The notes: generated by a model from the letters alone, not told the origin. Shown: positions 1 through 36,407, counted from the stretch's first letter. The stretch: 44,445 nucleotides of DNA from an uncultured Actinomycetes bacterium (GCA_963824995.1 CAWGRK010000004.1:62001-106445); one strand, 5' to 3'. Made by a program: numbers and translations.

Positions 1-1283
1 GGCCGAACGACGATCGGATCGTCAAGGGTGAAATCGTCCACCAGAACCCGCTCGGGGTTGTAGTCGACCTGGTCGCCGCCGAGTGATCTGATGAGGATCT
101 GCTTCACCGCGGGTACATAGCCCGAGCCGGGGCGGGCATCGCGCTGGGTGAGGAAGGCGAACTCGCCGAAGTCATTGGTGGGAGCGACGACCACCCCGGT
201 ACGCGCCGATACGAACATCCCCTCGAGCGGCTCCCAGAATTCGATCCCCGCGGGTATCGAGACGTCAGGTAGATCGGTCAACGAGACCGGGGCAGGAAGC
301 GGGTTGCCACTCGACTCGACCACCACCGCCGAGGGGTTGGCCAACCTGGTGAGAGGCAAGGCGTTGCCGAACTGCTGCTCTTCGACAGTTGCGGTGACGG
401 TCACCATGTCCCCGGGGCGGGCGCCGAGCGCACCACCACCTGGAAGAAAGACGCCGTCGGATGTCGCCGGGTCACCATCGCCCACCGGGTCCTGGAGCCA
501 GACGTCGTTTCCACCCGATGTGATCGCGGTGACGACTCCGCTGGTGGTGGCCACTTCTCCGGCGAACGGGGACCGTTCGCCATCACCTTGAATCTGGGGG
601 ATCGTCAACGCGATGGGCGAGCAGCCATCGAACCCGCCCGGTGTTGGAGTGTTGTCTGGACCCAGGTCGAAGTCGGAGATGACCCAGTCCTCCGGCGTTT
701 CGGTGTCGACACCGTCGGTCGATCTACGCGCACCGGCCGGGAAGAAGCTGCCGTCGGGACCGATAACCGGTGCCTCGAAGAAGAACGAGTCATCGATGCC
801 ACCGTCGGTGAGAGCGACCGTGTCGAGAACCACCTCGGACCCGGTGACCATGCCCCCCGAGATCGAGCTTGTCTCCACCAGCGCGACGGTGAGCGAACTG
901 TTCTCGAAGCTGTCGGTCCCGATGGCGTCATCGGGCGTGACGCCGTAGTGGATCGGCAAACCGCCGCAGTTGCCTATCAAGAAGAAGCCGTTGTCCCCGA
1001 CCGTCTGGAAGGGCAGGAAGTCGATGCGGCGGTCGATGGTCCCAGCGGCTCCGACGTCTCCCTCGACGACGATCAGCGACAGCCCCGTCAAGCTGTAGCC
1101 GGGGTCGCCGTACAACTCGACGTACTCGGTGTCATCGGTCCCGGTGTGACTGGCGAGGACCTCGTTGATCAGGACAGGGTCGCCGGTCGCAGCCGGCGCC
1201 AACGACGCCGGCAGGAGCGCCGCAACGACGGCAATCGCCGTCGTCGTCCATCCGAACCGTCGCCGAACCCCCTTGGAAACCAT
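1..1283 (-). CDS. Secreted lamin-tail-domain + OB-fold protein, probable ExeM/NucH-like extracellular nuclease (3' end beyond window edge)
   Basis: Not in the ORF track because it runs off the edge. ATG at 1283 with a GGAGG RBS. Manual translation: signal peptide MVSKGVRRRFGWTTTAIAVVAALLPASLAPAA, LTD-type VLINEVLASHTGTDDTEYVELYG, then TIPQIQGDGERSPFAGEVATTSGVVTA...WLQDPVGDGDPATSDGVF and FWEPLEGM, typical of ExeM/YhcR OB folds. The catalytic domain is not visible. Confidence 0.75.
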   Translation of the reverse strand, partial: MVSKGVRRRFGWTTTAIAVVAALLPASLAPAATGDPVLINEVLASHTGTDDTEYVELYGDPGYSLTGLSLIVVEGDVGAAGTIDRRIDFLPFQTVGDNGFFLIGNCGGLPIHYGVTPDDAIGTDSFENSSLTVALVETSSISGGMVTGSEVVLDTVALTDGGIDDSFFFEAPVIGPDGSFFPAGARRSTDGVDTETPEDWVISDFDLGPDNTPTPGGFDGCSPIALTIPQIQGDGERSPFAGEVATTSGVVTAITSGGNDVWLQDPVGDGDPATSDGVFLPGGGALGARPGDMVTVTATVEEQQFGNALPLTRLANPSAVVVESSGNPLPAPVSLTDLPDVSIPAGIEFWEPLEGMFVSARTGVVVAPTNDFGEFAFLTQRDARPGSGYVPAVKQILIRSLGGDQVDYNPERVLVDDFTLDDPIVVR

Positions 1284-1358
1284 GTGCCCTCCTGTGGCGG
1301 TCACATGGAGAAAGGTACCCCCGGGGTGCGACAACCGCACCGGGGCCAGTCTCGATGG

Positions 1359-4300
1359 TCAACCGGTGGCCAGAGCGGGTTGCTCCCCGGTCAGCGTCCC
1401 GAGACGGTTCTCGGCGGAAGCGGCGAGCGCCAGATGGGTCCGTCGCTCTTCTCCTTCCAGGGACAGTGCCGCCGCTTCAGCATGCAGCCGAGCAGCATCC
1501 CAGGTCAGCCCTCCAGCGTCGGCATAGGCAGCCCCCCGTCGGAAATGACGCCGAGCCGCAGAGGTGCGGTTCCTCAGGAGTTCATATCGCCCCTTGAAGA
1601 GCTGCACCCGCGCCCGGGCGAAGGGGAGTAGCAGCGCATACCGCCTCAGTCCGGAGAGAGACGACTTCAACTCGTCGAGCGCGCCGCTCTCACCGCCGGC
1701 GGCGAGCTTCGCCAAGGAGTCACACCAGGCCGTGTAGGAGGTGAGGTGGAGGAAGATGGGGGATGGTCGCAGCTCGCCGTTGGCTTCGACCAGAACCGGA
1801 CGCGAATCGTCGCTCCGCCCGACGGCTACGAGAGCCAGGGCTCGTGTGGTGAGGTGAAGTCCGAGAGCGATGCTGTCGGCTCTCTCCACGACCAAGGACG
1901 CCGCATCGCTGGAGCGGACCGCGCCGTCAACGTCGCCTGCATCGACCAGGAGAGGAACGAGAAGCGTCCTCGCCCAGGTCTCGTGCTGCGGTTGGTCCCG
2001 TCTGTGACCGTCGGCGGCGAGTTCGGTCAGGTCCTGTCTCGCCAGATCGAGCGGCCCATAGATGGTTCGGGCGAAGCCGCGCACGGCGAGCGCTGCCCCA
2101 TAGGCGTCCGAGGCGATCCGCTCGGCGGCATCGACCGTTCGGTCGAGCAGGTCGATCACCTCGGCGCTGTGATCCTCTTTCCCGGCGAGCAGAAATACGG
2201 CTTCCGAGAGGTCGGCCGCCACGTGGAATGGGGTGGTGACATCACGCTCGATCTTGGCGGCCAGCGGGCCCGGCTGACCTTCGAACACCGGCCGAATCGG
2301 ATCGGCCCTGGCAAGACCGAAATAGCGACGGGCGAGACGATGGAGCCGGACGGTCCCAACAAGGTTCCCCAGTCCGGCGTACGCCGGACCGGCCACCCCC
2401 GGGTCGCCTGCCCTCTCTGCCAGGTTGATGGAACGCAGGTTGGTCACCAGCCAGCGGGGCACGTCGGCCTGGAAGTAGTGGACCTGACCGAGAACCGAGA
2501 GGATGAAGGCGGCCTGTCGCGTGACGGCGGCCTGGTCGCCCTGGTTGGGCCGACCTCCGAGCAGATGGCCGATCTGGACGAACACTTCCTTGATGAAACG
2601 GGCGGTCCCCCTGACCCAACCCCCAGACACGGCGTGGCCCAGCTTGGCCAGGCCCGCCTGGTACTGCTCCACCGCCGGGTCGAGGCGGCCCTGTGCTGCC
2701 TCGGCTTCCCCGAGTGACTGGTGGATGTATGCGCAACGCGTCGCCGGAAGGCTGCTGCCACGAGCATCGAGTTGATCCGCTCTGGCCAGGGCGGCGCCCA
2801 GAAAAGAAGCGGCGTCGTCGAAGGCACCCGCTTCGAGTGCGGCCGCTCCGGCGCCCTCGAGGTAGTCGAGAGCCGGTTCCAGGTGGCCGGCAGCCTCCCA
2901 GTGGTGGGCGAGTAGGGGATACTGCGTCGGCGCCGGGCCACCTTCTTCGATCCTCTTCGCCACCTCCTCGTGGAGCTGCCGGCGCATCGCAAGGGGCAAT
3001 TGCTCGTAGGCCGACTCCTGAACCACGGCGTGGCGAAAGGTGAACCCGTTGTCGGTCGGCGTGATCAGGTCACGTCGCACCAGGTCGTCCAGCTGCTCGG
3101 CGATGAGGCTTTCGTCGAGGCTCAGCGGGTGGATCGCGGCAAGTAACTCCGCGTCGAAGCTGACTCCCAGCACGCTGGCGACCTTGACCGTGGTCTGCTC
3201 GATGGCGCTCAAACGGCTCAGCCGGCTCGAAGTCAAACCATGGACGGTGTCGGGAAGGTCGAGGTTCTCCAGCCGCTCACCGGGCACGGCGGTGGCGACC
3301 TTGCCATCGACCACGTCGACATAGCCCTGGTCGCGCAGCGAGTAGACGAGTTCCTCGATGAAGAGCGGGTGCCCTTCCGCCTTCGCCTCGATGAGACGGG
3401 CCAGGCCCTCCGGCAGATCGATCACCCCGAACCTGTCGCTTGCCAGCCGGCGCGCCGCGTCAGCCGGGATCCGCTCCAGCCGGAGCAGATCGACATCCGG
3501 GGCGGCGATCAACGCCTCCAGGACCTCATGCCGCTCCCCAACGGTGGGGCGGGTGGTCAGGAGCAGGGCGGTCTCCGGCAACTCTTGGTGAACCTGGTTG
3601 AGCAGATCCCAGGAGGCGGCATCGAGCCAGTGGCAGTCCTCCATCACTATGAGAAGAGGGACCCCGGCGAGCGACCTGAGCAGTTCCACCACCGCGGTGG
3701 CGGTACGCAAACGGCGCCCTTCCGGCGTGAGCGCTGCCGTCGCCGCCGTGCCCGGGATGTCGATCCCCATCACGGCGGCGAGAAGCGGGGACAGATCCGG
3801 TCCACCCGGGATTCCTTCGAAACGCGCTCCAAGCACCCGGGCCCTATCTGCCGGGTCGACGATGGTGTCGAGGCCGAGCGCCTCGCCGCAGACGGTTCGC
3901 CATGCGGAATACGGAGCGGCTTCCACCGGATGGCCCCCTCCGGCCAGAACGGTGAATCCGAGCGAGCGACTGGTGTCGATCGCCTCAGCCGCGAGGCGCG
4001 TCTTCCCGATACCGGCTTCACCCTCCAACACGAGAACAACAGGCTCGCCACGGGCGGCGGCACCAAGGCGACGGTGGACGATTGCCCGTTCCTCATCCCG
4101 CCCGACCAGAGGATCGGTGGCGTTGGCTCCGGGCTGTACCGACCAGATGGGCCGGTATGCCTCCACCGGCGCGTCGTGCCCTTTCAAACGGATCGGGGTG
4201 AGTTGGGCGAAGTGAACCCGGCCCCTGGTGGCACGCCTGGTAGCGCGGTCGCAAAGGACCTCGTTCCCGGCTGCCTGCATCAACCGGGCCGCCAGGTTGA

Positions 4301-5414
4301 CGCTCGGGCCGACGACGGTGCGCGCTCGAAACACGTCCGTTCCGTACAGACCGGTGAAGACCCTCCCGGTCGTTATGCCGATCCCGTGATCCAGCCGGAT
4401 GTCGAGCAGTGCCCGATCGAGCGCCTGACCCGCCTCCACGGCGCGCAGCGCATCCTCCTCGTGGACAAGCGGCGGAAGACCGAACACGCCGAGCAGGGTC
4501 AGCGCCTTGTCGTCGGCGAGGATCCCGGTGAGCGTCCCCTCGTAACGATCGAATGTCTCCTGGGCGGTGCGCACGACCAGTTGCAGGGCGTTGCGATCTC
4601 GGGTGTCGATCAGATCGAGGCCCCTCATGTTGAGAAAGAGCGAAGTGGTGGTGAGGTACTCGGTGTGCCACCCGCCCTCGTCCTCACCGAGGAATTCGCT
4701 CACGCCGGAGGGCAGGTAGGCCTCGACTGCGTGAGACACATCCCCGTCAAGCTGCGCCGGTTGCATCGCCGCGATATCCGAGTGCTCGACCGCCAACAGC
4801 CGGAACATGCCCGAGGGGGCGGGAACGAGACGGCTCTGGCTCAGCAACCGGGCAACGTCTCCGGTGACGGCGACGTCTCCCGGATCCACATCGACCACCG
4901 CGGAACCCATTGCGGCCAAGGCGGGACCGGCGACGAGGAACTGGTGCCGGCCCTGGAACCCCCCGAGGTCGAGCATGACCGCCCGACCAGCCCCTATCCC
5001 GATTCGGAAGCCGAGACTCCGCTGCGTGCCGACCCCGAGACCAGCGATCGTGTCCTGGGCATCGAGCGCGCATCTGCCTGCGGCGAGAGCGGCCTCTGTC
5101 AGCGAGGGTCCGGGCATCCATACCGCGACCAGCGAATCCCCGCCAAAGCCGACCATGAGCCCACCGTGCCGATCGACCGCTCCGATCAGACCGCGGAAGT
5201 ACCTGTTGAGCTCGGCGACGATCTGCTCGGTACCCATGGATGGATCGGCGGCGAGCCGCTGGGTGAGCCCAGAGAACCCGGAGACGTCCATCTGCATGGC
5301 AACGAGTTCGGTCTCTTCAGCGAGCAGCCCTTCGGGCACTTCGGGCCGCGTCGCCAACCGGAGCCGCAACGGCCCCGGGAGAAAGCTGGCGAGAAGGTCG
5401 GCGGTCCCCGGCAT
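1359..5414 (-). CDS. Soluble-adenylyl-cyclase-like protein: two class III cyclase domains + STAND AAA ATPase + TPR-like helical C-terminus
   Basis: C1 has MDVSGFS and FGGDSL. C2 has DDKA and TVVGPSVNLAARLM. Walker A GEAGIGKT, Walker B LIVMEDCHWLD, plus GHPLFIEEL and FRHAVVQE. Start placed at ATG 5414 (purine-rich GAAGGGGGG upstream) rather than 5459. Confidence 0.9.
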   Translation of the reverse strand: MPGTADLLASFLPGPLRLRLATRPEVPEGLLAEETELVAMQMDVSGFSGLTQRLAADPSMGTEQIVAELNRYFRGLIGAVDRHGGLMVGFGGDSLVAVWMPGPSLTEAALAAGRCALDAQDTIAGLGVGTQRSLGFRIGIGAGRAVMLDLGGFQGRHQFLVAGPALAAMGSAVVDVDPGDVAVTGDVARLLSQSRLVPAPSGMFRLLAVEHSDIAAMQPAQLDGDVSHAVEAYLPSGVSEFLGEDEGGWHTEYLTTTSLFLNMRGLDLIDTRDRNALQLVVRTAQETFDRYEGTLTGILADDKALTLLGVFGLPPLVHEEDALRAVEAGQALDRALLDIRLDHGIGITTGRVFTGLYGTDVFRARTVVGPSVNLAARLMQAAGNEVLCDRATRRATRGRVHFAQLTPIRLKGHDAPVEAYRPIWSVQPGANATDPLVGRDEERAIVHRRLGAAARGEPVVLVLEGEAGIGKTRLAAEAIDTSRSLGFTVLAGGGHPVEAAPYSAWRTVCGEALGLDTIVDPADRARVLGARFEGIPGGPDLSPLLAAVMGIDIPGTAATAALTPEGRRLRTATAVVELLRSLAGVPLLIVMEDCHWLDAASWDLLNQVHQELPETALLLTTRPTVGERHEVLEALIAAPDVDLLRLERIPADAARRLASDRFGVIDLPEGLARLIEAKAEGHPLFIEELVYSLRDQGYVDVVDGKVATAVPGERLENLDLPDTVHGLTSSRLSRLSAIEQTTVKVASVLGVSFDAELLAAIHPLSLDESLIAEQLDDLVRRDLITPTDNGFTFRHAVVQESAYEQLPLAMRRQLHEEVAKRIEEGGPAPTQYPLLAHHWEAAGHLEPALDYLEGAGAAALEAGAFDDAASFLGAALARADQLDARGSSLPATRCAYIHQSLGEAEAAQGRLDPAVEQYQAGLAKLGHAVSGGWVRGTARFIKEVFVQIGHLLGGRPNQGDQAAVTRQAAFILSVLGQVHYFQADVPRWLVTNLRSINLAERAGDPGVAGPAYAGLGNLVGTVRLHRLARRYFGLARADPIRPVFEGQPGPLAAKIERDVTTPFHVAADLSEAVFLLAGKEDHSAEVIDLLDRTVDAAERIASDAYGAALAVRGFARTIYGPLDLARQDLTELAADGHRRDQPQHETWARTLLVPLLVDAGDVDGAVRSSDAASLVVERADSIALGLHLTTRALALVAVGRSDDSRPVLVEANGELRPSPIFLHLTSYTAWCDSLAKLAAGGESGALDELKSSLSGLRRYALLLPFARARVQLFKGRYELLRNRTSAARRHFRRGAAYADAGGLTWDAARLHAEAAALSLEGEERRTHLALAASAENRLGTLTGEQPALATG

Positions 5415-5446
5415 GAGCGTCCCCCCCTTCGACGAGCCTACCGGGG

Positions 5447-6404
5447 GTGGCTCTCGCATCTAGGTTCCCACCTGTGGTGCTTCCCTCGCCCGACCGGTTG
5501 GCCACCATCGCCCGCCAAGCAACTCTCACCTTCGCCGACGAGCTCCAGCCCATGTCGCGGGGGCTTTGGGAGGAAATGCTCCGGAGACGGCGAGAAGTGA
5601 CGGGAGGCGGACCGGATTACCTCCATCCTCTTGCCCAACCGGTCGTGCTGGTTCCCCTGTGGGCTGCGCAGGCAGCGGCCGGCATCGGGAGTGGCGTGAC
5701 GGGCGAGCTCGTCGAGACGGCGGCAGCCGCCGGCGCGATCGGCTACTACGCGGTGCGACTCCAGGACGATCTCATGGACGAGGGGATCGGCGATCCCGCC
5801 GCGATCGCCGTTCTCTCTTCGGCGGTGCTGACGGCAGCCCAATCGACGCTCGGCTCGATGGGTCTCAGCGCCAGGTTCTGGAGTTGGCACCGTGAAGTCA
5901 TGTTGGGCTACGCCGAGGCGATGCAGTTCGAGGCGGAGATCCGCTACGATCCCGATGCCTATGACGAAGCCGCCTTCGAGCGGGTTTTGGAGCGGTCGCG
6001 CCCTCTCGCGGTGCCGGGCGTGGCGGTGCTCGACGCCGCCGGGGCCTGGTCGCTTCAACCGGATTTCGAACGGATGATCTTGTCGGCGACCGGTGCACTG
6101 CAGATCGTCAACGACCTGGACCAGGTCGCAAAGGACCTGGCGGAGGGCAACCGCACCTGGGTGCACAACCTGCTCGGGTTGCACGCCGGTGCCCCGCTGA
6201 CCAGGGGCAGGTTCATCGGCGGGATGGATCGGGTACTCGACGAGATGAGAGATCGTCTGGCCGAAGTTGGCTGGGTTGGCCGTCCGACTCGGCGTGCCCG
6301 AGGCGGCGGTGTGGGCGGAGACGACCAAGAGAGCGGCCACCGATCGCTTCGAGCGGGTGCTTCTGTCGCTGCTCGAGACGCCCCCGGCAGGCGCACCGAC
6401 TTAG
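5447..6404 (+). CDS. Class I isoprenoid-synthase-fold enzyme (ComQ-like prenyltransferase / terpene-synthase-like); one indel near 6270
   Basis: First Asp-rich motif RLQDDLMDE; second motif LQIVNDLDQVAKDLAEGNRT. After about 6270 the plausible helical C-terminus continues in another frame (AGLAVRLGVPEAAVWAETTKRAATDRFERVLLSLLETPPAGAPT*) to TAG 6402-6404. Start codon uncertain. Confidence 0.72.
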
Positions 6405-6416
6405 CATTGCCGCAAT

Positions 6417-6842
6417 CGTCGAGTGGAGGGGACATGGACGAGGAACCTGGATACCCCAATGGGATTCCGGAGGACGATGAATCGGGAACCTCGATGGGAT
6501 TCCCGGATTCATCAGAGGGATTCCGACGGAGGTGTTCGGCAAGGTGATCACGTCGTCAGTCATTCCGCACGGACTTGTTCGCCGAAGGTGCCGACCTCAG
6601 CGACGGTTCTGCGAAGGGCACGCATCCACATATCAGCCGACATCGGTCTGGAGCAGTTGCAGAAACTCATCGAGACGGAGCGCAGCGCGAATACCCTGAG
6701 CCTGCTCGACAGCGATCCTCCGATCGAATCGCCTGAGCGGTCGGCCGCCGATCGATAGTCGGCCTGACGCGGTCGTCCCGCTCCTGGACATGCCCTCGGC
6801 GTAGCATCCGGCGACCGTCGAGTGGAGGGGACATGGACGAGG
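6417..6842 (+). repeat. 27-bp exact direct repeat CGTCGAGTGGAGGGGACATGGACGAGG (6417-6443 and 6816-6842), marking a ~400-bp tandem gene duplication
   Basis: Read directly. Each copy holds a GGAGG RBS, the ATG and the first codons (MDE). Each is preceded by TAGCAT (6402-6407 and 6802-6807). Confidence 0.92.
6434..6758 (+). CDS. Small NHLP-leader-like protein, copy 1 (candidate RiPP precursor); three indels, or a pseudogene
   Basis: Rebuilt across frames as MDEEPGYPNGIPEDDESGTSMGFPD/FIRGIPTEVFGKVITS/QSFRTDLFAEGADL/ATVLRRARIHISADIGLEQLQKLIETERSANTLSLLDSDPPIESPERSAADR*. This aligns collinearly with 6833-7066. Confidence 0.6.
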
Positions 6843-7066
6843 CACCTGACTTTCTCAATGAGGTCCCGGAGGCGGTTTTCGGCAAGGTGGTCAAGTCGCG
6901 CACCTTTCGCGAGGCCTTGTTCGCCCAAGACGCCGACGTCCGCCAGGTTCTGGACGAGGCCGGCATCTACATCAGCGAGGACGGCCTCCGGCAGTTGAAG
7001 GACCTGATCACTCAGGAGCACGAGCACCCGACGCTCGGGGTGCTTTACGGCGCCGAGATCGTCTGA
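6833..7066 (+). CDS. Small NHLP-leader-like protein, copy 2 (candidate RiPP precursor, 77 aa)
   Basis: Strong RBS and intact ORF. VFGKVVKSRTFREALFAQDADVRQVLDEAGIYISEDGLRQL matches the G-K/R-x4-F-R-x2-L...L-x3-G-x2-[LI]-[ST]-x-[ED] pattern of nitrile-hydratase-leader-clan small proteins. Confidence 0.7.
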   Translation: MDEAPDFLNEVPEAVFGKVVKSRTFREALFAQDADVRQVLDEAGIYISEDGLRQLKDLITQEHEHPTLGVLYGAEIV

Positions 7067-7895
7067 CCGATCGGCCGCCCGGAAAGCGGCCGTCTTCTAC
7101 GACCGTTGGTCGGAGACGTTCCTCCGACTGGCGGGTTCCAGCTTCCAGTCGGGGTTGATCCCGGCATCGCCCGGTGCGTCCGAGGATCCCGACGCCTCCG
7201 CCGTAGCCTTGGCGCGGCGGGCCGGCATCGGCCCCGGTGACCTCGTGCTCGACGCCGGCTGCGGCGTGGGCGGTCCCGCCATTGCGATAGCCCGTGATCT
7301 CGGGGCAATCGTCCACGGGGTCACCGTCTCCCCCGTCCAGGTGAGGCTCGGTCGGGTTCTTGCCGCCGAGGCAGGTGTGGCCGACCGGGTTCATCTCCAT
7401 CTCGCCGACTTCCACCAACTCCCGTTTGCCGACGAGCGGTTCGATGCGGTGACGGTGATGGAGGCGACCTGCTACAGCGATGACCTGTCGGGCCTGATCG
7501 GGGAGTTGGCGAGAGTCCTCCGGCCCGGCGGCACGCTGTACGTCAAGGACGTGTTCCAGCGGGCCGGCCCACTCACCGAGATCCAGCGACGAGATCTCGC
7601 ACGGTTCCATGAGATCTGGGCGTGTCACGCCAGCGCCACCATGCCGGCGCTCGAGGAAGCGATGGGGAGCGCCGGCCTCGGTGTCGTGGCCAGCGCCGAG
7701 TTGACCGACATCGGAACCGACCATTTCTACGCGGCGATGCTCGAGGTCGATCCGGTGGAAGGGTTACGTCTCAGCGAAATGGGGAGCCATTTCCTGCAGC
7801 GGGGAGACGTCCCCATCACGTGGGGAGAGGTTGTCGGGCAGAAACCTCTTCAGTCGCCAGGGACGACCGCAACCGCAGTGATCTCGACCAGCTGA
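7062..7895 (+). CDS. Class I SAM-dependent methyltransferase (sterol/tocopherol/GPP-methyltransferase-like); start unresolved
   Basis: Motifs VLDAGCGVGG, VHGVTVSPVQ, ADFHQLPFADERFDAV and RVLRPGG. The frame is open upstream of the ORF-track start (7155) and encodes a typical N-terminus AVFYDRWSETFLRLAGSSFQSG, but has no canonical start codon there. Confidence 0.85.
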   Translation, partial: SDRSAARKAAVFYDRWSETFLRLAGSSFQSGLIPASPGASEDPDASAVALARRAGIGPGDLVLDAGCGVGGPAIAIARDLGAIVHGVTVSPVQVRLGRVLAAEAGVADRVHLHLADFHQLPFADERFDAVTVMEATCYSDDLSGLIGELARVLRPGGTLYVKDVFQRAGPLTEIQRRDLARFHEIWACHASATMPALEEAMGSAGLGVVASAELTDIGTDHFYAAMLEVDPVEGLRLSEMGSHFLQRGDVPITWGEVVGQKPLQSPGTTATAVISTS

Positions 7896-8251
7896 CCGGT
7901 GTAACCGAGGAAGGGGACACCGAGCAGCGTCGACGTATGCGGTCCGACGCTGAGGTCCGACCGGCGAACCTCGTCCCACACGATGGACAGATCTGCATGC
8001 TCGGCAGCGACCACGTAGACGGTGGTAGCCACGACTCGGTCGAGGCCGGTGCCGGCACCGTGCAGCGCGTCAGCCAGGTTGGTGAGAACGGCCCTCGTTT
8101 GCGCCCTCAGGTCTCCCGCCCCGACCAGGGATCCCGACTGGTCGATGGGCACGGCTCCGGCGGCGAACACCAAACGCTCGCCTGCTTCGACGGTTGCGGT
8201 GTGGGCGTAGCCGGGCGGTGTGGCCAGACCCGACTCGATGCGGCTCTCCAT
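7850..8251 (-). CDS. RidA/YjgF/YER057c/UK114 family protein
   Basis: GYAHTATV, LVFAAGAVPID, DLRAQTRAVLTNL, STLLGVPFLGYTGQLVEITAVA. Start set at ATG 8251. Confidence 0.85.
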   Translation of the reverse strand: MESRIESGLATPPGYAHTATVEAGERLVFAAGAVPIDQSGSLVGAGDLRAQTRAVLTNLADALHGAGTGLDRVVATTVYVVAAEHADLSIVWDEVRRSDLSVGPHTSTLLGVPFLGYTGQLVEITAVAVVPGD

Positions 8252-8342
8252 CGACGCGATCGTAGAGCCAGCCCGCTTCGGCGCATCAGGCGGCGCGGCA
8301 CAAGTTGCCCTGAGCAGGTTCTCGCCCGTCGGTAGGAGATCG

Positions 8343-8516
8343 ATGTCGGCAACGCTTCCCGGCGGTTCGACACGGGTCGAGGTCCGCCATGTGAGGCGGA
8401 CGCTCGGGCTCGGCGCCCTCGTGTGGATCATGTTCTTCACCGTCTCCGGCGGCCCCTACGGGCTGGAGGACACCATCGGGGAGTCCGGCGCGGGGATGGG
8501 CCTGCTTCTGATCCCT
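8343..8516 (+). pseudogene. 5' remnant of an APC-family amino acid/polyamine permease
   Basis: AGGAG RBS and ATG 8343. RRTLGLGALVWIMFFTVSGGPYGLEDTIGESGAGMGLLLI is an APC TM1-TM2 signature. Similarity ends abruptly at a G-run and hairpin. Confidence 0.7.
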
Positions 8517-8530
8517 GCCGGGGGGGACGG

Positions 8531-8568
8531 AGCGTTGGGGTGGGAGGCCGAGGCCCCCCACCCTCGCT
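8531..8568 (-). terminator. GC-rich hairpin just downstream of dhaK
   Basis: GGGTGGGAGGCC-GA-GGCCCCCCACCC imperfect stem, extendable with AGCG/CGCT. No U-tract. Confidence 0.45.
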
Positions 8569-8571
8569 GTC

Positions 8572-9567
8572 TCAGAAGACCCTGTTGGAGATCTCCGCCG
8601 GAGCCAGCAACAACTCCTTGAGCTCGTCGTCCACCTTGAGCATTGTGAGCGATCCCCCTGCCATCTCGAGTGAGGTGCAGTACTCGTTCACATAGCTGCG
8701 GAAGACGTTGATGCCCTTCTCGGCGAGCTTGTTGTGGGCGATCCCGTAGAGCAGGTAGAGCTCGCTGATGGGCGTCCCTCCGAGTCCGTTGATCATCAGC
8801 GCCACCTCGTCGCCCGACTCGAACGGGAGGTCGGGGACAACCGCGTCCAAGAGGATGTCGACGATGTCGTTCGCCGGCACCAACTTGGTGCGCTCACGGC
8901 CGGGCTCACCATGGATGCCGATCCCGATCTCCATCTCGTCGTCGGCGATCTCGAACAGCGGGGTGCCCCTCACCGGCGGGGTGCACGAACTGAGAGCGAT
9001 GCCCATCGTCCTCACCTGGGCGATCACCTTCTCGCCGATCCGCACCAATTCATCCAATTCGGCACCGTTCTCCGAGGCGGCCCCGACCGCCTTTATGACG
9101 AAGAAGTTGCCCGCGACGCCACGGCGGCCGACGGTCCACGTCGAGTCCTTGACTGCCACGTCGTCGTTGACCAGGAGGGCCCCGACCTTCATCCCGTCGG
9201 CCTCGCACATCTCCTTGGCCATCTCCCAGGCGGTGCGATCGCCGGTGTAGTTGTTGACGAGGTGGAGAATCCCCTTCGGCGAGTACAACAGTTTGGACGT
9301 CTCGTAGACGAACTCGACCGGCGGCCCGGCAAAGACGTCACCTGGACATGCCCCATCGAGCATTCCGGGCCCGACGATCATCGTATGGGCCGGCTCGTGG
9401 CCGGAGCCCGAGCCCTGGATCACTGTGACCTTGTCGTCCTTGGGGATGTCGGCCCGATAGATCAGGTTGTACTTCGGCTCGTACTTGAGCGTTCCCCCAC
9501 TGGCGAGTTGGATCCCGGCCAACATCTCGGGGACGAACTGACGGGGGTCGTTTACGAACTTGTTCAC
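8572..9567 (-). CDS. dhaK: Dihydroxyacetone kinase family substrate-binding subunit K
   Basis: GSGSGHEPAH, NNYTGD, GRRGVAG, EIGIGIHGEPG, NGLGGTP and TSLEMAG motifs. Confidence 0.93.
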   Translation of the reverse strand: MNKFVNDPRQFVPEMLAGIQLASGGTLKYEPKYNLIYRADIPKDDKVTVIQGSGSGHEPAHTMIVGPGMLDGACPGDVFAGPPVEFVYETSKLLYSPKGILHLVNNYTGDRTAWEMAKEMCEADGMKVGALLVNDDVAVKDSTWTVGRRGVAGNFFVIKAVGAASENGAELDELVRIGEKVIAQVRTMGIALSSCTPPVRGTPLFEIADDEMEIGIGIHGEPGRERTKLVPANDIVDILLDAVVPDLPFESGDEVALMINGLGGTPISELYLLYGIAHNKLAEKGINVFRSYVNEYCTSLEMAGGSLTMLKVDDELKELLLAPAEISNRVF

Positions 9568-10233
9568 GCCTGGGTCTCCTCTTCTCCGTACTTCTCACGC
9601 CATGCTTTGGCTATGTCCTGCAGGATCACGCCGATCGCGGTCGCTCCGGCGTCAACCGAGTCACGGCTGCGCTCGCCGGTGTAGGCGGCCCGGCCTCGCT
9701 TGGCGATCATCCCCATGGTGCCCTCGGCAGCTTTCACTGCCACATCGGCCGCATCTTGCAGGGCGATGACCCCCTCATCGGCCACGCCCTCCCTGAAGCT
9801 GGCCTCCAGGCTGTCGACCGCCGGCACCAGCGAGTCGAGCAGCGTCTTGTCTCCCACCGAAGCGTCGCCGCGGGTCTGTATCCCCTCGATGGCGGCGCGC
9901 GAATATCTCGATCACATCGTCGGATGACAGCTCTGTCTTCTCTCCGGCGGCCGCTGCGGCCCGGAGAAAGGCGGTTCCCCAGATGGGACCGCTCACGCCT
10001 CCCACCTTGCCCGAGATCACGAACCCGACCTTCTTGAGCAGCGACCCCACGCTCGAACGATCAAAGGTGTCGTAGTCGGAATCGACCACCTCGAAGCCGT
10101 TCCTCAGCGAATAGCCGAAGTCGCCGTCACCCACCACAGCGTCGAGCTGTGCGAAATAGTCGGCGTTGTCGACGATCGTGGTCGCCATCGTCTTGAGGAC
10201 GAGATCGACATCGTCGAGCGTGGATCTTGCCAT
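9564..10233 (-). CDS. dhaL: Dihydroxyacetone kinase family nucleotide-binding subunit L; one indel near 9900
   Basis: N-half has LDAVVGDGDFG and GGVSGPIWG. C-half has GDKTLLD, AKRGRAAYTGERS and DAGA. GGAGG RBS before ATG 10233. Confidence 0.9.
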
Positions 10234-10269
10234 ATGTACCTCCTCGTTTGTCGTAACGACGGCCGCGGG

Positions 10270-11043
10270 TCAGGACGCCAGACAGCGCTCCAGATCCAGC
10301 AGAGTCACGTAGTCGCCGGGTTCGGCGGAGCTGCGGTTGGCGATGACTCGCGTCCGCTCACCTCCGGGATCGCCCAGCGACGAGACGACCAGAATCGCTT
10401 CGCTGTTGTCCTCCTCCTCCGTGTAGCCGTTGACTGTCATCACACACCGCAGCCCGGCGGCCGAGGCGGCCAACAGACCGTTCCGAGAGTCCTCGATGAC
10501 AAGGGCCTCGTCGGCGGTCACCCCCAGCCTCTGCAGCGCCAGCAGGTAGATATCGGGGGCCGGCTTCTTCCTGTCCACGACGTCGCCGGCCAGCACGACG
10601 TCGAAGCGGTCGGCGCGTTCCTCACCCACTGCCTGACGGAGGATCGCCAACACCGATGGTTCTGCCGAGGTCGAGGCAACGGACAGCAGCCACCCGGCGT
10701 CCTGCGCCTCGCTTATCAGACGACTGACACCCGGCCGCGCCGGGAGCCGGCCAGAAGCCACCATGTCTGTGTAGATGCCGGTCTTCAGCTTGTGCCACTT
10801 GGCCAGCTCGGCGGCCCGCCCTTCGGGATCTGCCGGCAGACCGTTGGCAGCGGCGAACTCGGGGGTGAGTTCGGTTGCCATCCTCTCTTTCCCACCTGCG
10901 ACCTGGAGCTTCTCTCCATAGACCTCCTCCGACCACTCGATGGGAAGACCGAGTTGGTGGAACGTCTCGTTGAAGGCGACGCGATGACCATCCCGCTCGG
11001 TGTCGGCTAGGACGCCATCGCAGTCGAAAATGAGGGCGCTCAC
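10270..11043 (-). CDS. CbbY-like HAD-IA sugar-phosphate phosphatase
   Basis: [44 protein letters not shown]. Confidence 0.88.
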
Positions 11044-11891
11044 CAGGCCTTGCCCTCACTCCCGAACAGCCGGATGTGCTCCTTCGCCATCTCGATGACC
11101 GACTCGCGTTGCACAGCGAACTGCGACGGTGGGTCGTACTTGCCGGGGTTCTCGGTCATGAAGTCGTAGCCGGATTGCATGTAACGGATCTTGAGGGCGG
11201 TCGAGATGTTCACCTTGGCGCATCCGCGGGCGATGAGGTCCTCGAACTGCTCGGGTGACATCCCAGTGCCCCCGTGGAGCGCCACGGGGACGCCGGTGGC
11301 CTCGACGATGTCGGTGACCCTCTGACTGTCGAGTTTGGGCGCCCTCTGATACATCCCGTGGGCGTTGCCGATCGCCGGAGCGAAGACATCCACACCGGTC
11401 GAAGTGATGAAGTCCACCGCCGTCGCCAGCGACTGCTCCGACTCCACCTGGGTGTCGCCGATTTCCTCCACCCGCTTGAACCCTTCGATCTCGCCTTCGA
11501 CCAGCGCGCCGTATTTCCGCGCCTCCGCCACCACTTCGGTCGATTGCCGCTTGTTCTCCTCGACACTCAGCGACGAGCCGTCGAACAGGACCGAGTCCCA
11601 GCCTTTCTCGAGACAGAGGCTGATGACGTCACGCTCCGGACAGTGGTCGAGATGGAGCGAGGCTGGCACCTCCACCGCGGCAGCCATGGCTCGCCACATC
11701 CCCATCAGCGCGTCGGCGCCGATCGATTTCACCGTCTTGACCGAGGTCTGCACGATCAACGGCGAGCGCAGGTCCTCGGCGGCAGCCAGCACCGCCTCCA
11801 TGGTGAGATCGTTGACGATGTTGATGGCGGCGACCCCGTACCGCTCGGCAAAGGCTCGGCTGACGATTTCGCCGGTGGGGACGGCGGGCAT
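11040..11891 (-). CDS. Class II fructose/tagatose-bisphosphate aldolase family
   Basis: [42 protein letters not shown]. Confidence 0.92.
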
Positions 11892-12860
11892 CTAGGCACC
11901 TCCATTCGTCGCCATGTCGAGGACGGCTCTGGCGTTCCGCTCGTCGACGATCAGGACGTCGACGATCCCGGCATTGAGCACTCCGAGGATGGACAGCGGC
12001 TTCTCATCTCCGGAGACCACGGCAACCACCGTCTCGATCTGTCGCAATTGGTCTATGGAGAGCCCAATGAGCCGGCGGCTGTGCGGAGACTCGATGTGCT
12101 TTCCATTCACATCCACGTAATTGCCCAGGACGTCGCCGACGGCGCCTTGGGCGCGGAGACGGGCCATCTCCTCAATGGTCAGGCAGCCGCTGCGGACCAT
12201 GGTGCAGGCGTCGTCGGTGCCACCGATACCGACCAGAGCCACGTCGGCGCCGGCCGCCATCTCGAGCGTCTGGGTCACCGCTTCGTGTCGGAGCAAGCCC
12301 CGCCGCAGCGCCTGGCTCTCTACATAGACCGGGGCATACAGGCTCTGGACGCGGCCCCCGCACCGCTCCGCAAGTGCCTGGCCGATCTCGTTCGGGTTGG
12401 TGGGGACGTCCACCCGCGACGACCCACCCATGGCGCTGGCAAAAACGCAATCGATGGGCGACGGGGGGTGAAAGTGACGGGGGACGGCGCCCGTATCGCG
12501 ACCGTGGCTGACCGCCACCACATCCCCGTCGCGCAGGGAGCGCTCCAGGTAGCGCGCCGCGTTGCGGGCGACCGCCTCCCGTTGCGACTCGGGGTCGGCA
12601 TGGCTCGGGCTGACGACAGATTCGGTGAGATGGAATCTCTCGGCGAGCCGGCTCTCCAGTTCGAGGTCGAGCCCCTGGGGCACATCGATGTGGATCTCGA
12701 CGACCCCGGCGGAACGTGCCCGGTCGAGCAGCCGCTGCACCTTTGGCCGGGACAATCCGAACTCGTCCGCGATCTCGCCCTGGGTCCTCCGGTCGATGAG
12801 AGACCGGTGGGCGATGCGCGCCAGCAACTCGTGCTCGTCGCGGCTGAGTTCGGCAAGCAT
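11892..12860 (-). CDS. SorC/DeoR(LsrR)-type sugar-binding transcriptional regulator
   Basis: HTH TQGEIADEFGLSRPKVQRLLDRAR and sugar-binding domain ALVGIGG...GAVGDVLGNYVDVNG...LIVDE. ATG 12860 has a GGAGG RBS. Confidence 0.9.
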   Translation of the reverse strand: MLAELSRDEHELLARIAHRSLIDRRTQGEIADEFGLSRPKVQRLLDRARSAGVVEIHIDVPQGLDLELESRLAERFHLTESVVSPSHADPESQREAVARNAARYLERSLRDGDVVAVSHGRDTGAVPRHFHPPSPIDCVFASAMGGSSRVDVPTNPNEIGQALAERCGGRVQSLYAPVYVESQALRRGLLRHEAVTQTLEMAAGADVALVGIGGTDDACTMVRSGCLTIEEMARLRAQGAVGDVLGNYVDVNGKHIESPHSRRLIGLSIDQLRQIETVVAVVSGDEKPLSILGVLNAGIVDVLIVDERNARAVLDMATNGGA

Positions 12861-22038: not shown

Positions 22039-22158
22039 CAGGACGGGTCAAACCTCCCTGATCGGTCGGCGGCGGGCAGGGACGAACCCAGCGGTTGCCC
22101 TACGAATCAGCCGGAACAACACGACCGGCTCGACATCCTCGAGAAGCAGCGATGTGTC

Positions 22159-22213
22159 TTGACCACATCGAAGCGCGTCCAATATGCTGGATCCATGTCC
22201 AACAATGCGGAAC
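22159..22213 (+). promoter_or_regulatory. Leaderless promoter and candidate IclR operators for the CoA-transferase operon
   Basis: TTGACC (22159-22164), 18 bp, TATGCT (22183-22188), ATG 22195. Motifs GTCCAATATGCTGGAT (22177-22192) and GTCCAACAATGCGGAAC (22197-22213). Confidence 0.6.
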
Positions 22214-23416
22214 AACGCACTGATGGAACGCGGAGCGGGCCGCTGTCGGACCTGCGGATCCTCGAACTGGGGACATTGATCGCCGGCCCCTTTGCCGGGC
22301 GCCTGTTCGCGGACTTCGGTGCCGAGGTCATCAAGGTCGAGCACCCGGACCGCGGAGACCCCCTGCGCAGTTGGGGGATGACCTGGGACGGTACCAATTC
22401 GTTGTGGCACCTCGTCCAATCGCGTGGGAAGTACTCCGTCACCGCCGACCTGAATGAGGCAAAGGACCAGGCGTTCGTTTGGCAGCTGGCCGTCGAAAGC
22501 GACATCCTCATAGAGAACTTCCGCCCAGGCAGGCTGGAGAAGTGGAATCTGGATCCCCAGGATCTGATGGAGGCCAATTCGGGGCTGATCGTGGTTCGGA
22601 TCTCGGGCTATGGGCAAACAGGTCCACTGAAAAACCAGCCGGCATTCGGCACCATTGCTGAAGCTGCCAGTGGGCTGCGACTGATCACCGGGGAACCAGA
22701 TCTACCCCCGATGCGGGTCGGACTCAGCCTCGGCGATTCCATCGCTTCGCTGCATGCCGTGATCGGCGCCCTCATAGCACTCCACGAACGCCAGAGGTCT
22801 GGTCGCGGCCAGGTCGTGGACGTGGCACTGACCGAGTCGGTCTTTGCCATGATGGAGGGAATCCTTCCCGAATTCGCCTACCACGGCGCGGTACGCCAAA
22901 GAACCGGGAACATCGCTCACAACTCGGCGCCAACTAATGCCTATCCCTGTGCCGATGGGAACATGGTGTGCATCGCCGCCAACACCCCGGGGCCGTTTCG
23001 AGCACTGGTCCGGATCCTGGGTAGAGATGACTATGCAAACGACCCATCTCTGGAGACCAACGAGGCCCGAGTGGCGCGCTCTGATGAGCTGAGACGCGGC
23101 GATCGCTGCTTGGACGAGAACACGGACGGTCGACGAGATCGTCGAGATCCTCCGCGATCAGGAGGTACCGGTCAGCCCCATCAACAGCATCGCTGACATC
23201 GTCTCTGATCCGCAGTTTCGCGAGCGCGGCGTCATCGTGGAGGTCGAAGACGAGCGGCTCGATCGACCGCTGCTGGTGCCAGGGGTGGTGCCGAAGCTCT
23301 CACGGACCCCGGGGGCGGTGCCCGCGCTCGGACAGCACCTGGGAGAGGCGTCTGAGGAGATGCGAGCCCACTTCGCGCCGCGTGGCGGCGGAGACCCAGA
23401 TAGCCCAGGTCGGTGA
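22195..23416 (+). CDS. Family III (CaiB/BaiF) CoA-transferase; indel near 23090
   Basis: LRILELGTLIAGPFAGRLFADFGAEVIKVE, LIENFRPG, ISGYGQTGP. The C-terminus continues in another frame (AAIAAWTR...VSPINSIADIVSDPQF...PGVVPKLSRTPG...LGQH) to TGA 23416. Confidence 0.9.
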
Positions 23417-34808: not shown

Positions 34809-36407
34809 TCAAGTCCGGCTTTTCGATCCACGCAGGCTCTCGAGCAGGTCGAGGATCTCAGAGTCATCCACATCGTCCGAGATGAAGGGTTCGCCCACAC
34901 CTCTCAGCAGAACGAACCTCCGGCGTGAGTGCCGCCTCTTCTTGTCGTGCCTCATACCTTCGAGAATGTCGCGGGGTTGTAGCGCCGCGGGAATTCTCCC
35001 ACTCAGACCGATGTGACTGACAACCGCCTCGACTCGATCGACGAGGTCGCCGCTGGCAGCGCCCTTCCGGTGGGACAACGTGGCCGCAGCGACCAATCCG
35101 ATGGCGACCGCCTCGCCGTGGTTGATCGCTCCATCTGATGCGTACTCGATGCCATAACCGAATGTGTGGCCGAGGTTGAGATAGGTCCTCTGACCCTTCT
35201 CCTCGAACGGATCACTCTGGACAATCGCGATCTTGACCTGGATGGCTTGAGCGACGAGAGACTGGAGATCGGCGAGCATGCCCGGGAGCAGACTGCCGGT
35301 TCTCTCCCACGAAGTGGACTCGATCCGACTCAACAGGGAACTACTCGCGATCAAACCGTGTTTGACGACCTCAGCCAACCCGGCTGCGAAATCCCTCGCC
35401 GGAAGCGTCTGCAAGGTCGCGATGTCGGTCAATACCGCTTTGGGTTGTTTGTAGAGCCCAATGAGGTTCTTCCCCTGCGGCACGTCGAGGCCGACCTTGC
35501 CCCCCACACTGGTATCAACCATGGCAATCAAATTCGTCGGGCAATGGACGAGGTCCAGTCCACGGAGATAGGTCGCTGAGGCGAAGCCGGCGATATCGCC
35601 GATAGTGCCGGTGCCGAGGGAGACGGCCGTGGCCGACTTGTCGATTCCGGCCTCGAAGAGGTGCTGGTAGACGGTCGCCACGGCGTCGAGGGTCTTTTGC
35701 GATCGACCAGCCGGGAGAGTGATCGTCAAATCGACTTCACCCAGGCTGGGGACGTACAGGTCCCCGACGACTTCGTCGGTGATAACGACGATCGGTCCCT
35801 GGATAGAAGCCAGTTGGCGGATGAATGGGAGGATGCCGGCTCCGACCGTGTAGGGATAACCTCCGGTCGGGCTCGAGATGTCATACGTACTGTGACTCGA
35901 CCACAACTGGGCAACCTCGTCGGCTATGACCCCGGGACCGGCGTGATCGGTGACAAGCTGTGGGAAACGCCCGTATTCGCCCTGTCTCTCGGACAACAAC
36001 TCGATGATGCGTTCCCTAGGGTCTTCAACCTGAAGCAGCGGACGATCCCGACGCGTCTCGTCGCTCATGACCCGGTGATGAATCTCCTCGGGCGTCGCGA
36101 CCAGACAGAAGATCCGTCCGTTTCTACTGAGGGACTTAAAGTTCTCGGGATCGAGGATCATCCGGCCGCCGGTTGCGATAACGAGACCCGTCTTCGCTCC
36201 CAACTCGCGCGCCACTTCCCTTTCGATCGCCCGGAACTCACCCTCCCCGCGTTCAGCGAAGATGCGCGAGATCGGCCCGTGGCGTGATTCGATCATCTCG
36301 TCGGTGTCGACGAACTCCATCCCGAGCTTCTGCGCCAGTTGATAGCCGACCGTGGTCTTCCCCGTGCCCATGAAGCCCGTGAGGACGAGATTGTGCTCGG
36401 GATGCAT
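34809..36407 (-). CDS. aroB: Bifunctional shikimate kinase / 3-dehydroquinate synthase (AroK-AroB fusion)
   Basis: N-terminal GFMGTGKTT, DTD, GEGEFR, ATGG and RPLL. C-terminal GDIAGF, YLRG, MVDTSVGGK, GKNLIG, EVVKHG, LNLGHTFG, HGEAVAIG and DKK. Confidence 0.92.
   Translation of the reverse strand: MHPEHNLVLTGFMGTGKTTVGYQLAQKLGMEFVDTDEMIESRHGPISRIFAERGEGEFRAIEREVARELGAKTGLVIATGGRMILDPENFKSLSRNGRIFCLVATPEEIHHRVMSDETRRDRPLLQVEDPRERIIELLSERQGEYGRFPQLVTDHAGPGVIADEVAQLWSSHSTYDISSPTGGYPYTVGAGILPFIRQLASIQGPIVVITDEVVGDLYVPSLGEVDLTITLPAGRSQKTLDAVATVYQHLFEAGIDKSATAVSLGTGTIGDIAGFASATYLRGLDLVHCPTNLIAMVDTSVGGKVGLDVPQGKNLIGLYKQPKAVLTDIATLQTLPARDFAAGLAEVVKHGLIASSSLLSRIESTSWERTGSLLPGMLADLQSLVAQAIQVKIAIVQSDPFEEKGQRTYLNLGHTFGYGIEYASDGAINHGEAVAIGLVAAATLSHRKGAASGDLVDRVEAVVSHIGLSGRIPAALQPRDILEGMRHDKKRRHSRRRFVLLRGVGEPFISDDVDDSEILDLLESLRGSKSRT

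Follow-up and report, generated by a model that had tools for sequence, protein, structure and literature searches.

A candidate peptide prenylation and methylation operon with a small helical protein in an Acidimicrobiia genome

What is the function of a gene cluster in which an enzyme with the fold of isoprenoid synthases is encoded next to small helical proteins and a methyltransferase, and is the small protein the substrate of the enzyme or one of its subunits? This question is raised by a DNA stretch of 44,445 nucleotides from an uncultured Actinomycetes bacterium (GCA_963824995.1, CAWGRK010000004.1:62001-106445; the whole stretch is termed the window), which a sequence-only reading had suggested to harbour a system for prenylation and methylation of a ribosomally made, post-translationally modified peptide (RiPP). 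Our survey of open reading frames (ORFs) and translations identified four co-oriented, closely packed coding regions on the + strand at positions 5447-7895. They constitute a three-gene operon of an enzyme, a small protein and a methyltransferase, with the small gene being duplicated in the window lineage, and this operon is known only from a few soil Acidimicrobiia. The cluster is real and conserved beyond chance, because its gene order is kept in five of five closely related loci and because changes in the helical part of the small gene are mostly synonymous. As to its function, the locus may plausibly, if still tentatively, encode a RiPP-like prenylation/methylation pathway of the ComQ/PalQ type, an assignment made by analogy to these systems. 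The operon comprises the following features (nt, nucleotides; aa, amino acids).

5474..6404, + strand: enzyme resembling isoprenyl diphosphate synthases of the trans type (trans-IDSs); start GTG at 5474 assigned by homology, raw ORF 5447-6547
6417..6443, + strand: 27-nt repeat that takes in the ribosome-binding site (RBS) GGAGGGG as well as the opening codons of small gene copy A; recurs at 6816-6842 before copy B
6434..6758, + strand: small gene copy A, long paralogue type, ATG at 6434; no intact ORF, recognized by three-frame translation
6833..7066, + strand: small gene copy B, 77 aa, intact ORF
7047..7895, + strand: class I S-adenosylmethionine (SAM)-dependent methyltransferase; annotatable ORF 7155-7895 (TTG start, 246 aa), coding upstream to about 7047

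The arrangement of four packed, co-oriented coding regions had been recognized correctly by the sequence-only reading, but not all of them are genes as they stand: the 366-aa enzyme ORF is an artefact, copy A is not an ORF, and the conserved N-terminus of the methyltransferase is not preceded by ATG, GTG or TTG.

The operon and its products

One scan of species-representative genomes with a four-sequence enzyme alignment yielded six loci (L001-L006). Five of the six are located in metagenome-assembled genomes (MAGs) of Acidimicrobiia/Actinomycetes and share 80-90% DNA identity with positions 1-12000 of the window. In all five close loci the order of a regulator gene (- strand), the enzyme gene, the small gene, the methyltransferase gene and a RidA gene (- strand) is kept, with two small genes being present in the window and in L005 only. 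L003 carries an intact trio, i.e. an enzyme of 306 aa, a small protein of 84 aa and a methyltransferase of 282 aa. Comparison of the close loci revealed that the helical part of the small protein is near-invariant, with synonymous changes being dominant, and that its tail is more variable; the helical part evolves under purifying selection. There is probably a diverged version of the cluster as well, because a longest contig of 41,554 nt is recorded for each of two more distant small proteins, P0166 and P0167, and for the methyltransferase P0175 (58% identity). The enzyme of the sixth locus, L006, is 37% identical and its neighbours are MetH and a 23S-rRNA-IVP protein. L006 lies on contig CAMAWH010000023.1 of a MAG recorded as Klebsiella pneumoniae; the contig has 60-69% G+C, relatives of the enzyme are otherwise found in genomes of the Actinomycetota and Myxococcota type, and the contig is probably mis-binned.

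The 366-aa enzyme ORF of the window (5447-6547) results from a 1-nt frame break near 6264 that fuses two frames. It is artefactual because the homologues P0013 and L003 continue in the other frame and because the signal of G+C content at third codon positions (GC3) changes frame at about 6264, the same site as the homology break. Alignments with three relatives reveal a single extra base at this position, past which enzyme coding shifts frame and runs to a stop at 6402-6404, as judged from P0013 and L003. The intact form is represented by P0013 (305 aa, 83% identity) and by L003 (4977-5897, 306 aa).

AlphaFold2, provided with an alignment of 62 sequences (mean identity to the first row about 30%), predicted the enzyme to be all-helical, with a predicted local distance difference test score (pLDDT) of 95.4 and a predicted template modelling (TM) score of 0.93. 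In a Foldseek search of the PDB 18 structures were matched at E ≤ 0.001, the top matches (E of about 3e-4) all being trans-IDSs, namely geranylgeranyl diphosphate (GGPP), octaprenyl diphosphate (octaprenyl-PP) and heptaprenyl-PP synthases, with TM scores of 0.56-0.68 and about 15% identity. [quoted passage not shown] Both DDLMD and QIVND, the motifs named by the sequence-only reading, are present in the enzyme translation. The first Asp-rich motif is intact (Q-D-D-L-M-D-E) and aligns to the FARM of 4lob and of 4jxn, whereas the second is degenerate, reading N-D-L-D-Q in the window and x-D-L-x-D in the family consensus. Mapping of conservation onto the 62-row alignment identified P56, D214 and D221 as invariant and D98, D102 and Q210 as present in at least 90% of the rows. 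Moreover, the motif of the GKRxRP type that binds isopentenyl diphosphate (IPP) appears to be replaced by H-P-L-A-Q-P, according to our own reading of the sequence alignment. The isoprenoid-synthase fold predicted earlier, in which the first DDxxD is kept and the second motif has degenerated, is thus borne out by the AlphaFold2 model, the Foldseek matches and the alignment with 4lob.

Apart from the fold and the first DDxxD the enzyme shares with canonical trans-IDSs (GGPP synthase, octaprenyl-PP synthase, PF00348) a Q-x-x-(D)-D region around the second motif and a later 'D-L-x-x-G-(K/N)-x-T' stretch, both of which align. It differs from them in falling below PF00348 detection, in its low identity and, as far as can be read from the alignment, in the N-D-L-D-Q and H-P-L-A-Q-P stretches. 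Based on the structural model we assign the enzyme with confidence as a derivative of the trans-IDS fold. It probably still binds an allylic diphosphate, and chain elongation is unlikely because the canonical second motif and the basic IPP-binding motif appear to be lost.

The enzyme family comprises 165 relatives at E ≤ 1e-3, each being a cluster at 50% identity. A feature search of the Atlas located relatives in Myxococcota and Chloroflexota, with one cluster being named 'class 1 isoprenoid biosynthesis enzyme family protein'. Scans of 22 relatives against Pfam and of 10 against NCBIfam assigned no family to the enzyme region, PF00348 being touched by just one of the 22 (P0142, E = 0.088), and a family of this size that has no Pfam or NCBIfam model merits a definition. 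A tblastn search of plasmids with the enzyme gave no match, and Ord1 was found neither in the PDB profile search (E ≤ 10) nor among the Foldseek matches listed. Distant relatives (E 1e-4 to 1e-7) have other domains fused C-terminally. Of the 22 scanned, four carry radical SAM domains (P0128, P0143, P0158 and P0159), with a weak SPASM match in one of them. We considered these fusions as evidence for peptide chemistry and treat them as a lead only, as many peptide-maturase and cofactor models match equally, far below their cut-offs. Another relative, P0152, has a C-terminal squalene-hopene-cyclase-like domain above the Pfam cut-off, and the corresponding match of P0126 is below it; this architecture recalls the published prenyltransferase-cyclase fusions ChrPC and NctPC.

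The small protein is best represented in the window by copy B, which has a GC3 of 0.86. Its AlphaFold2 model (pLDDT 79.6) contains helices at residues 13-21, 23-29, 36-42 and 49-64, followed by a tail with a pLDDT of about 59, i.e. a conserved four-helix domain (residues 12-64, approximately) precedes a less conserved C-terminal tail that is predicted to be disordered. The tails, compared in an alignment of 15 sequences, are acidic, with a conserved hydrophobic dipeptide as their last residues, and the intact ones share the pattern [ST]-L-x-x-L-[DEY]...[LIV]-[VA] with the dipeptide at the extreme end. A tail Trp occurs in one member alone (P0003/L001).

Copy A is preceded by the same 27-nt RBS/start stretch as copy B, the two being identical in the DNA alignment. 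The family profile matches it in three different frames (6481-6696, 6548-6733 and 6405-6755), with the pieces following each other in frames 2 (6434 to about 6487), 1 (about 6484-6564), 2 (about 6563-6607) and 0 (about 6606-6758), the frames being given as position modulo 3. Each piece has a coding-like GC3 (0.56-0.80). Compared with the intact counterpart in L005 (6961-7254, 97 aa, P0164) about four frame-changing indels have to be assumed; another intact relative of the copy A type, P0165, has 100 aa. One of these indels, at about 6728, puts another sequence in the place of the usual C-terminus. The two copies had been described as paralogues with divergent tails, and the paralogy holds, whereas the tail divergence is in part an artefact because this indel creates an odd C-terminus in copy A, and the intact tails share a pattern. 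Paralogues of the copy A type further possess an N-terminal acidic extension rich in Pro and Gly (window 6452-6530; L005 6961-7060; P0165). In the window this extension contains three imperfect repeats of GGGATTCC(C)GGA, corresponding to a 56-nt expansion relative to copy B.

Small proteins of this family are confined to a narrow clade: of 5.8 billion clusters, 12 were found by single-sequence search and 17 by profile search. Pfam assigned no family to the small protein, and an Atlas search with it gave only scores of up to 0.77. NF038399, the Os1348 family of the nitrile hydratase leader peptide (NHLP) clan, was matched by 8 of the 15 family members (best E = 4.7e-4). TIGR03798 (Nif11-like leader) was matched by the window protein with 12.5 bits against a cut-off of 32.3 (E = 0.13), and the Os1348 structure 6lk7 ranked 11th in the fold search with a non-significant match (E = 4.7, TM scores 0.44/0.43). 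The sequence comparisons thus suggest a weak resemblance of the small protein to the NHLP clan.

The methyltransferase is a class I SAM-dependent enzyme, as had been proposed, with matches to the Pfam families Methyltransf_11 (E = 2.4e-20) and Methyltransf_25 (E = 2.5e-19). Searching the PDB we obtained MitM (1.4e-28), 3bus (1.7e-20), which is presumably RebM, and a glucose O-methyltransferase (1.3e-19), followed by BezA (5.5e-13), geranyl diphosphate (GPP) 2-C-methyltransferase (2.1e-10), a C6-farnesyl diphosphate (FPP) methyltransferase (6.3e-8) and sterol 24-C-methyltransferase (4.8e-7). With MitM/RebM-type enzymes it shares the Rossmann fold with an N-terminal 'FYD...W' lid, the GPP, BezA and C6-FPP enzymes being more distant, so that the likeness is not specifically to the sterol/GPP C-methyltransferase group put forward earlier. 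It differs from both the MitM/RebM and the prenyl-diphosphate C-methyltransferases in lacking an equivalog-level match: no equivalog cut-off of NCBIfam is approached, the best score being 65.6 bits where 155 are required, and the second-best match was NF041943, GPPMT_Stmyces, with 60.8 bits against a cut-off of 400. Relatives at 45-50% identity are found in records of Geodermatophilus, Blastococcus and Myxococcales.

The 5' end of the methyltransferase gene is unusual. Twenty conserved codons (FYDRW...QSG) lie upstream of the TTG at 7155, with no ATG, GTG or TTG before them. By manual count over six genomes these 20 codons comprise seven columns with only synonymous variation and one with an amino-acid change; the total given by a script, 10 and three, respectively, refers to a stretch of 30 codons that runs beyond the TTG. 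This pattern argues clearly for purifying selection on the upstream codons. Copy B and the methyltransferase share 20 nt, the end of copy B being overlapped in the +1 frame by the 5' end of the methyltransferase gene, and a +1 overlap with the small gene is constant among the loci. In L003 an intact 282-aa form (6170-7018) starts with an ATG located 20 nt inside the end of the small gene. An ACG is found at the position of this ATG in the window, L002, L004 and L005, and an ATC in L001, suggesting a near-cognate start or coupled re-initiation. One further candidate was set aside. A fusion of peptide and methyltransferase, by frameshifting or as a fused gene, is not represented among 115 methyltransferase relatives, none of which exceeds 392 aa or is fused, and for +1 frameshifting the stop context is, in our judgement, unlike known +1 sites.

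Predicted docking and likeness to known peptide prenyltransferases

We co-folded the enzyme and the small protein of L003 with one alignment per chain in three runs, alongside three controls. The ipSAE score of the pair was 0.67 (median of 0.28, 0.68 and 0.67), as compared to 0.02 for the best of the controls, so that the co-fold proposed by the sequence-only reading stands clear of its controls. Of 157 solved complexes 116 attained the mark applied here, as did 2 of 215 mismatched pairs; this calibration is rough for the present pair since own alignments were used. The runs share at least 42% of their contacts, and the pLDDT of the partner is at least 61. In the predicted complex the small protein contributes residues 11-14 and 22-38, which form the conserved hydrophobic face of the helical domain, as well as the first part of the tail (64-74). 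The enzyme contributes residues 218-224 beside the invariant D221, the loop/helix 235-252 (235, 241-252), and the C-terminal helix 293-304. The models thus support binding of the helical domain to the C-terminal helices of the enzyme. In the window enzyme this docking helix lies past the frame break.

We compared the locus with known peptide prenyltransferases, all comparisons relying on those parts of the published descriptions that we cite. [quoted passage not shown] The same source describes ComQ as having the FARM and lacking the SARM (PMC10853753). All characterized members, i.e. ComQ, the P domain of ChrPC and PalQ, are reported to target Trp (PMC13290415, section 2.4), and a conserved Gln precedes the pseudo-SARM of peptide prenyltransferases (PMC13290415). 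With PalX and PalQ a pair of an NHLP-type precursor and a trans-IDS-like prenyltransferase has already been published, so that the claim of an undescribed system could not be upheld in its general form. Our literature searches on ComQ, PalQ and NHLP, which were narrow, returned Trp systems only and no description of the present enzyme family.

As described, PalQ/PalX resembles the window locus in several respects. In both, a precursor-sized protein of about 80 aa combines a folded NHLP-type domain with a very short C-terminal core or tail, and the enzyme is an all-α member of the isoprenoid-synthase superfamily that has kept the FARM, lost the SARM and forms its own sequence cluster. A complex of enzyme and precursor is predicted in either case, and neither cluster, as far as the cited account of PalQ/PalX goes, contains a dedicated protease or exporter. 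The PalQ cluster differs in having a histidine kinase, in the place of which the window has a methyltransferase and an adjoining cyclase/ATPase protein, and in its host, which belongs to the Bacillota, whereas the window host is a member of the Acidimicrobiia. ComQ/ComX and the ChrPC P domain share with the enzyme, according to their descriptions, the use of the FARM for the donor and a repurposed pseudo-SARM following a Gln, the counterpart of which would be the highly conserved Q210. ChrPC is a fusion of prenyltransferase and cyclase, and the distant relative P0152 is likewise fused to a cyclase-like domain. ComX, in turn, is short and unstructured with an internal Trp, whereas the small protein here is a folded domain with a tail. 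Set beside ComQ, PalQ and ChrPC by these descriptions, the locus appears to be similar in architecture to a ComQ/PalQ system.

The leader part can be compared with two further families. A Nif11-like leader was described as a tetrahelical bundle with a disordered region, where the enzyme recognizes the folded protein (bioRxiv 10.64898/2026.10.04.756588), and Os1348 is an 85-aa NHLP-related putative precursor located beside a GNAT protein, an HEXXH protein and a SagB-type protein (PMC7726476). The small protein is similar in size (about 80 aa), helical content and, with weak sequence and structure signals, in relation to Os1348 (NF038399, 6lk7) and Nif11-like (TIGR03798) proteins, and its helical domain followed by a flexible region corresponds to the architecture of the Nif11-like leader. 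It differs from both, as they are described in these sources, in scoring below their cut-offs, in having neither a GG motif nor a core rich in Cys, Ser or Thr, and in its partner enzymes.

Starting from the computed fold, motifs, synteny, purifying selection and docking we infer the following putative pathway. The enzyme would have descended from a trans-IDS, and its first Asp-rich motif would bind the Mg2+ and diphosphate of an allylic prenyl donor. The small protein would be the substrate, and its conserved four-helix domain would be the folded leader, attaching to the C-terminal helices and to the loop that follows the second motif. The flexible C-terminal tail would thereby come to lie at the entrance of the active site and be prenylated there, and the methyltransferase would then methylate the peptide or its prenyl group. 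Transferase activity, acceptor residue, donor length and the task of the methyltransferase, as well as cleavage or export if they occur, are conditional parts of this proposal.

A number of observations weigh against the small protein being a prenylated precursor. With regard to the acceptor, PalX has a conserved C-terminal Trp and PalQ is described as strictly Trp-specific, whereas the window tails have no conserved Trp. The alignment of 15 sequences revealed no conserved Trp, Cys, Tyr or other obvious nucleophile in the tails beyond Thr/Ser and acidic residues, and no Gly-Gly or GA leader cleavage motif before them. With regard to the leader, all NF038399 matches are below the cut-off (14.4 bits against 40 for the window protein), the fold search gave no match at E ≤ 0.001, and the profile search of the PDB contained no Os1348 or nitrile hydratase chain, the best match being CalG1 (E = 0.019 over 28 residues). 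The proposed NHLP-like leader is borne out by weak, sub-threshold similarity. In the co-folding one of the three runs scored 0.28 only, and the last 10 or so tail residues were not confidently placed. Moreover, the predicted docking would be expected equally of an accessory subunit, leaving substrate and subunit undistinguished.

Further points against this assignment come from the other genes. For the window enzyme neither Pfam (E ≤ 1) nor NCBIfam returned a family, ComQ-type and polyprenyl_synt models being among those left unmatched. The nearest solved relatives of the methyltransferase are small-molecule enzymes. The enzyme family with its 165 clusters is much larger than the small-protein family with 17. 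L006, the sole distant locus, has no small gene (no profile match at E ≤ 10) and no methyltransferase. Finally, Pfam searches of the neighbouring genes detected no peptidase, peptidase-containing ABC transporter (PCAT) or exporter in the flanks, in line with the earlier remark that neither a protease nor an exporter is adjacent.

A more specific version of the prenylation pathway, which we regard as speculative and rather unlikely, would combine several of these points. The locus would then represent a new non-Trp branch of trans-IDS-like peptide prenyltransferases that attaches a lipid to the short tail of a folded NHLP/Nif11-like precursor, the site being acidic, Thr/Ser or C-terminal; the methyltransferase would cap the product, which would be retained by the cell and signal to the adjoining cyclase/STAND (signal transduction ATPases with numerous domains) ATPase. 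Retention in or on the cell is proposed because no exporter or protease is nearby, and a signal read by the cyclase/STAND ATPase would parallel the pairing of ComX and PalX with a kinase. If this were true, a Trp-free tail on a folded leader would widen the chemistry of ribosomal peptide lipidation and offer enzyme engineers a new acceptor specificity, and the recognition of folded NHLP/Nif11 leaders would be tied to prenylation in Actinomycetota.

Alternative readings of the locus

The closest competitor to peptide prenylation is a pathway for a small-molecule (methyl-)terpenoid, which we consider possible, though doubtful. The enzyme would be a non-canonical terpene synthase or a prenyltransferase for a small acceptor, the small protein a clade-specific accessory or regulatory subunit, likened to the small subunits of heteromeric prenyl-diphosphate synthases, and the methyltransferase would act on the prenyl diphosphate or on the product. 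In line with this, the solved relatives of the methyltransferase include MitM, 3bus, the glucose O-methyltransferase, BezA and the GPP and C6-FPP enzymes, with GPPMT_Stmyces ranking second in NCBIfam, although the match to MitM is far stronger than that to the GPP 2-C-methyltransferase. A broad enzyme family that extends to Myxococcota and Chloroflexota next to a small-protein family of 17, the occurrence of the enzyme alone in L006, and the cyclase-like domain of P0152, with P0126 below the cut-off, likewise fit terpenoid chemistry. The Foldseek list also includes the heteromeric hexa-/heptaprenyl-PP synthases 3aqb and 9kp1. However, known IDS small subunits themselves have the IDS fold, and a protein of 77-84 aa with four short helices is unlike them. 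The co-fold suggests binding while leaving the tail end unplaced, as would suit a subunit, but docking occurs on the C-terminal helices and not on the dimer interface, as far as reported. The tail has no conserved nucleophile, which again is compatible with a subunit; the folded domain with a flexible tail and a weak NHLP signal fits a precursor better, and precursor genes are typically duplicated and diverge in their tails, as in the case of the small gene. Should the small protein nonetheless be an accessory subunit, it would represent a new mode of regulation for a non-canonical terpenoid enzyme.

Another explanation, which is compatible with either function, is that the cluster is a decaying remnant in the window genome, with real frame breaks and no product there; we think this somewhat improbable. 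It is suggested by the accumulation of about four frame-changing indels within the 325 nt of copy A, as compared to one each in the enzyme, DhaL and CoA-transferase genes across 44 kb. Such clustering is unexpected for random assembly errors given a background of about one break per 10-15 kb. Furthermore, the break in the enzyme removes the residues after position 275 or so, including the predicted docking helix 293-304. On the other hand, the pieces of copy A still read as a well-conserved protein with coding-like GC3, and copy B as well as the methyltransferase gene have stayed intact under purifying selection. L002, L004 and L005, which are MFD-named MAGs, each carry breaks of their own in the genes of the cluster, and in L004 the 1366-aa regulator is affected as well. 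The pattern points to assembly indel errors because the breaks are not shared among the MFD MAGs and because L003 and the metagenome proteins P0164 and P0165 are intact. The MFD-named MAGs are presumably long-read assemblies, and L003, a TPA (Third Party Annotation) record, probably derives from short reads, as judged by its k141 contig name. Both a locally error-prone assembly and very recent decay may account for the window, i.e. the pathway may be impaired there or the breaks may be assembly indels. The genes to clone are therefore intact ones of the L003 type and not those of the window.

Least probable, and in our view improbable, is that the enzyme is a non-catalytic helical scaffold or receptor of the small protein and the methyltransferase the sole modifier, which might, for instance, act on the C-terminus of the small protein or on one of its acidic residues. 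The loss of the second Asp-rich motif and the canonical IPP-binding motif would agree with this, as would a co-fold interface that is formed between protein surfaces and is distant from the first Asp motif, acidic tails with their conserved terminal dipeptide of hydrophobic residues, and a methyltransferase gene that runs into the small gene, with translational coupling of the two in L003. However, the invariance of D214 and D221 and the retention of D98, D102 and Q210 by at least 90% of the 62 sequences, at about 30% mean identity to the first row, are hard to explain without catalysis or ligand binding.

Flanking genes and other observations

The operon is bordered on both sides by genes on the opposite strand.

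1359..5459, - strand: large protein resembling a regulator, with domains of cyclase homology, an AAA_16 ATPase and a region of helical repeats; 1366-aa ORF, divergently transcribed
7850..8440, - strand: RidA/L-PSP gene, convergent, downstream edge of the cluster; Pfam Ribonuc_L-PSP E = 8.8e-18, position kept in L003-L005

The regulator matches AAA_16 (E = 1.4e-18) and Guanylate_cyc (E = 8.2e-6) in Pfam, and its position and strand are the same in L001-L005. Comparison with L003 and L005 suggests that it probably starts at an internal Met near 5414. Its top match in NCBIfam is TIGR03903, 'TOMM system kinase/cyclase fusion protein' (TOMM, thiazole/oxazole-modified microcin), with 165.8 bits against a cut-off of 705.75. 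Proteins of the TIGR03903 type accompany one group of NHLP precursors; the N-terminal part of the regulator resembles a second cyclase-homology domain and not a kinase. A functional tie between regulator and operon is putative.

Apart from the regulator and RidA the flanks contain genes for DhaK/DhaL, a haloacid dehalogenase (HAD)-type hydrolase, an aldolase and a SorC-type regulator. An Rfam scan of the entire window, which has a G+C content of about 65%, yielded no family, and a scan for promoters and terminators gave nothing beyond the expectation from shuffled sequence. The DhaL gene (9567-10269, - strand) is split by a single break into 9778-10269, corresponding to Dak2 positions 2-81, and 9567-9911, corresponding to positions 80-173, and a family III CoA-transferase gene (+ strand) is split by a single break into 22039-23193 and 23093-23413; these may be either assembly indels or pseudogenes.

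Between 37430 and 42250 about 5 kb are covered by long ORFs that overlap on both strands, e.g. 39175-40494 (-) and 40064-41923 (+), and no Pfam family was assigned to the ORFs of this region at E ≤ 1e-4. L001 contains about 3 kb of extra DNA (8677-11682) between the RidA gene and dhaK, which the window does not have at the corresponding site (8514-8537). A single ORF at 34812-36410 (-) combines shikimate kinase and 3-dehydroquinate synthase domains in an AroK-AroB fusion.

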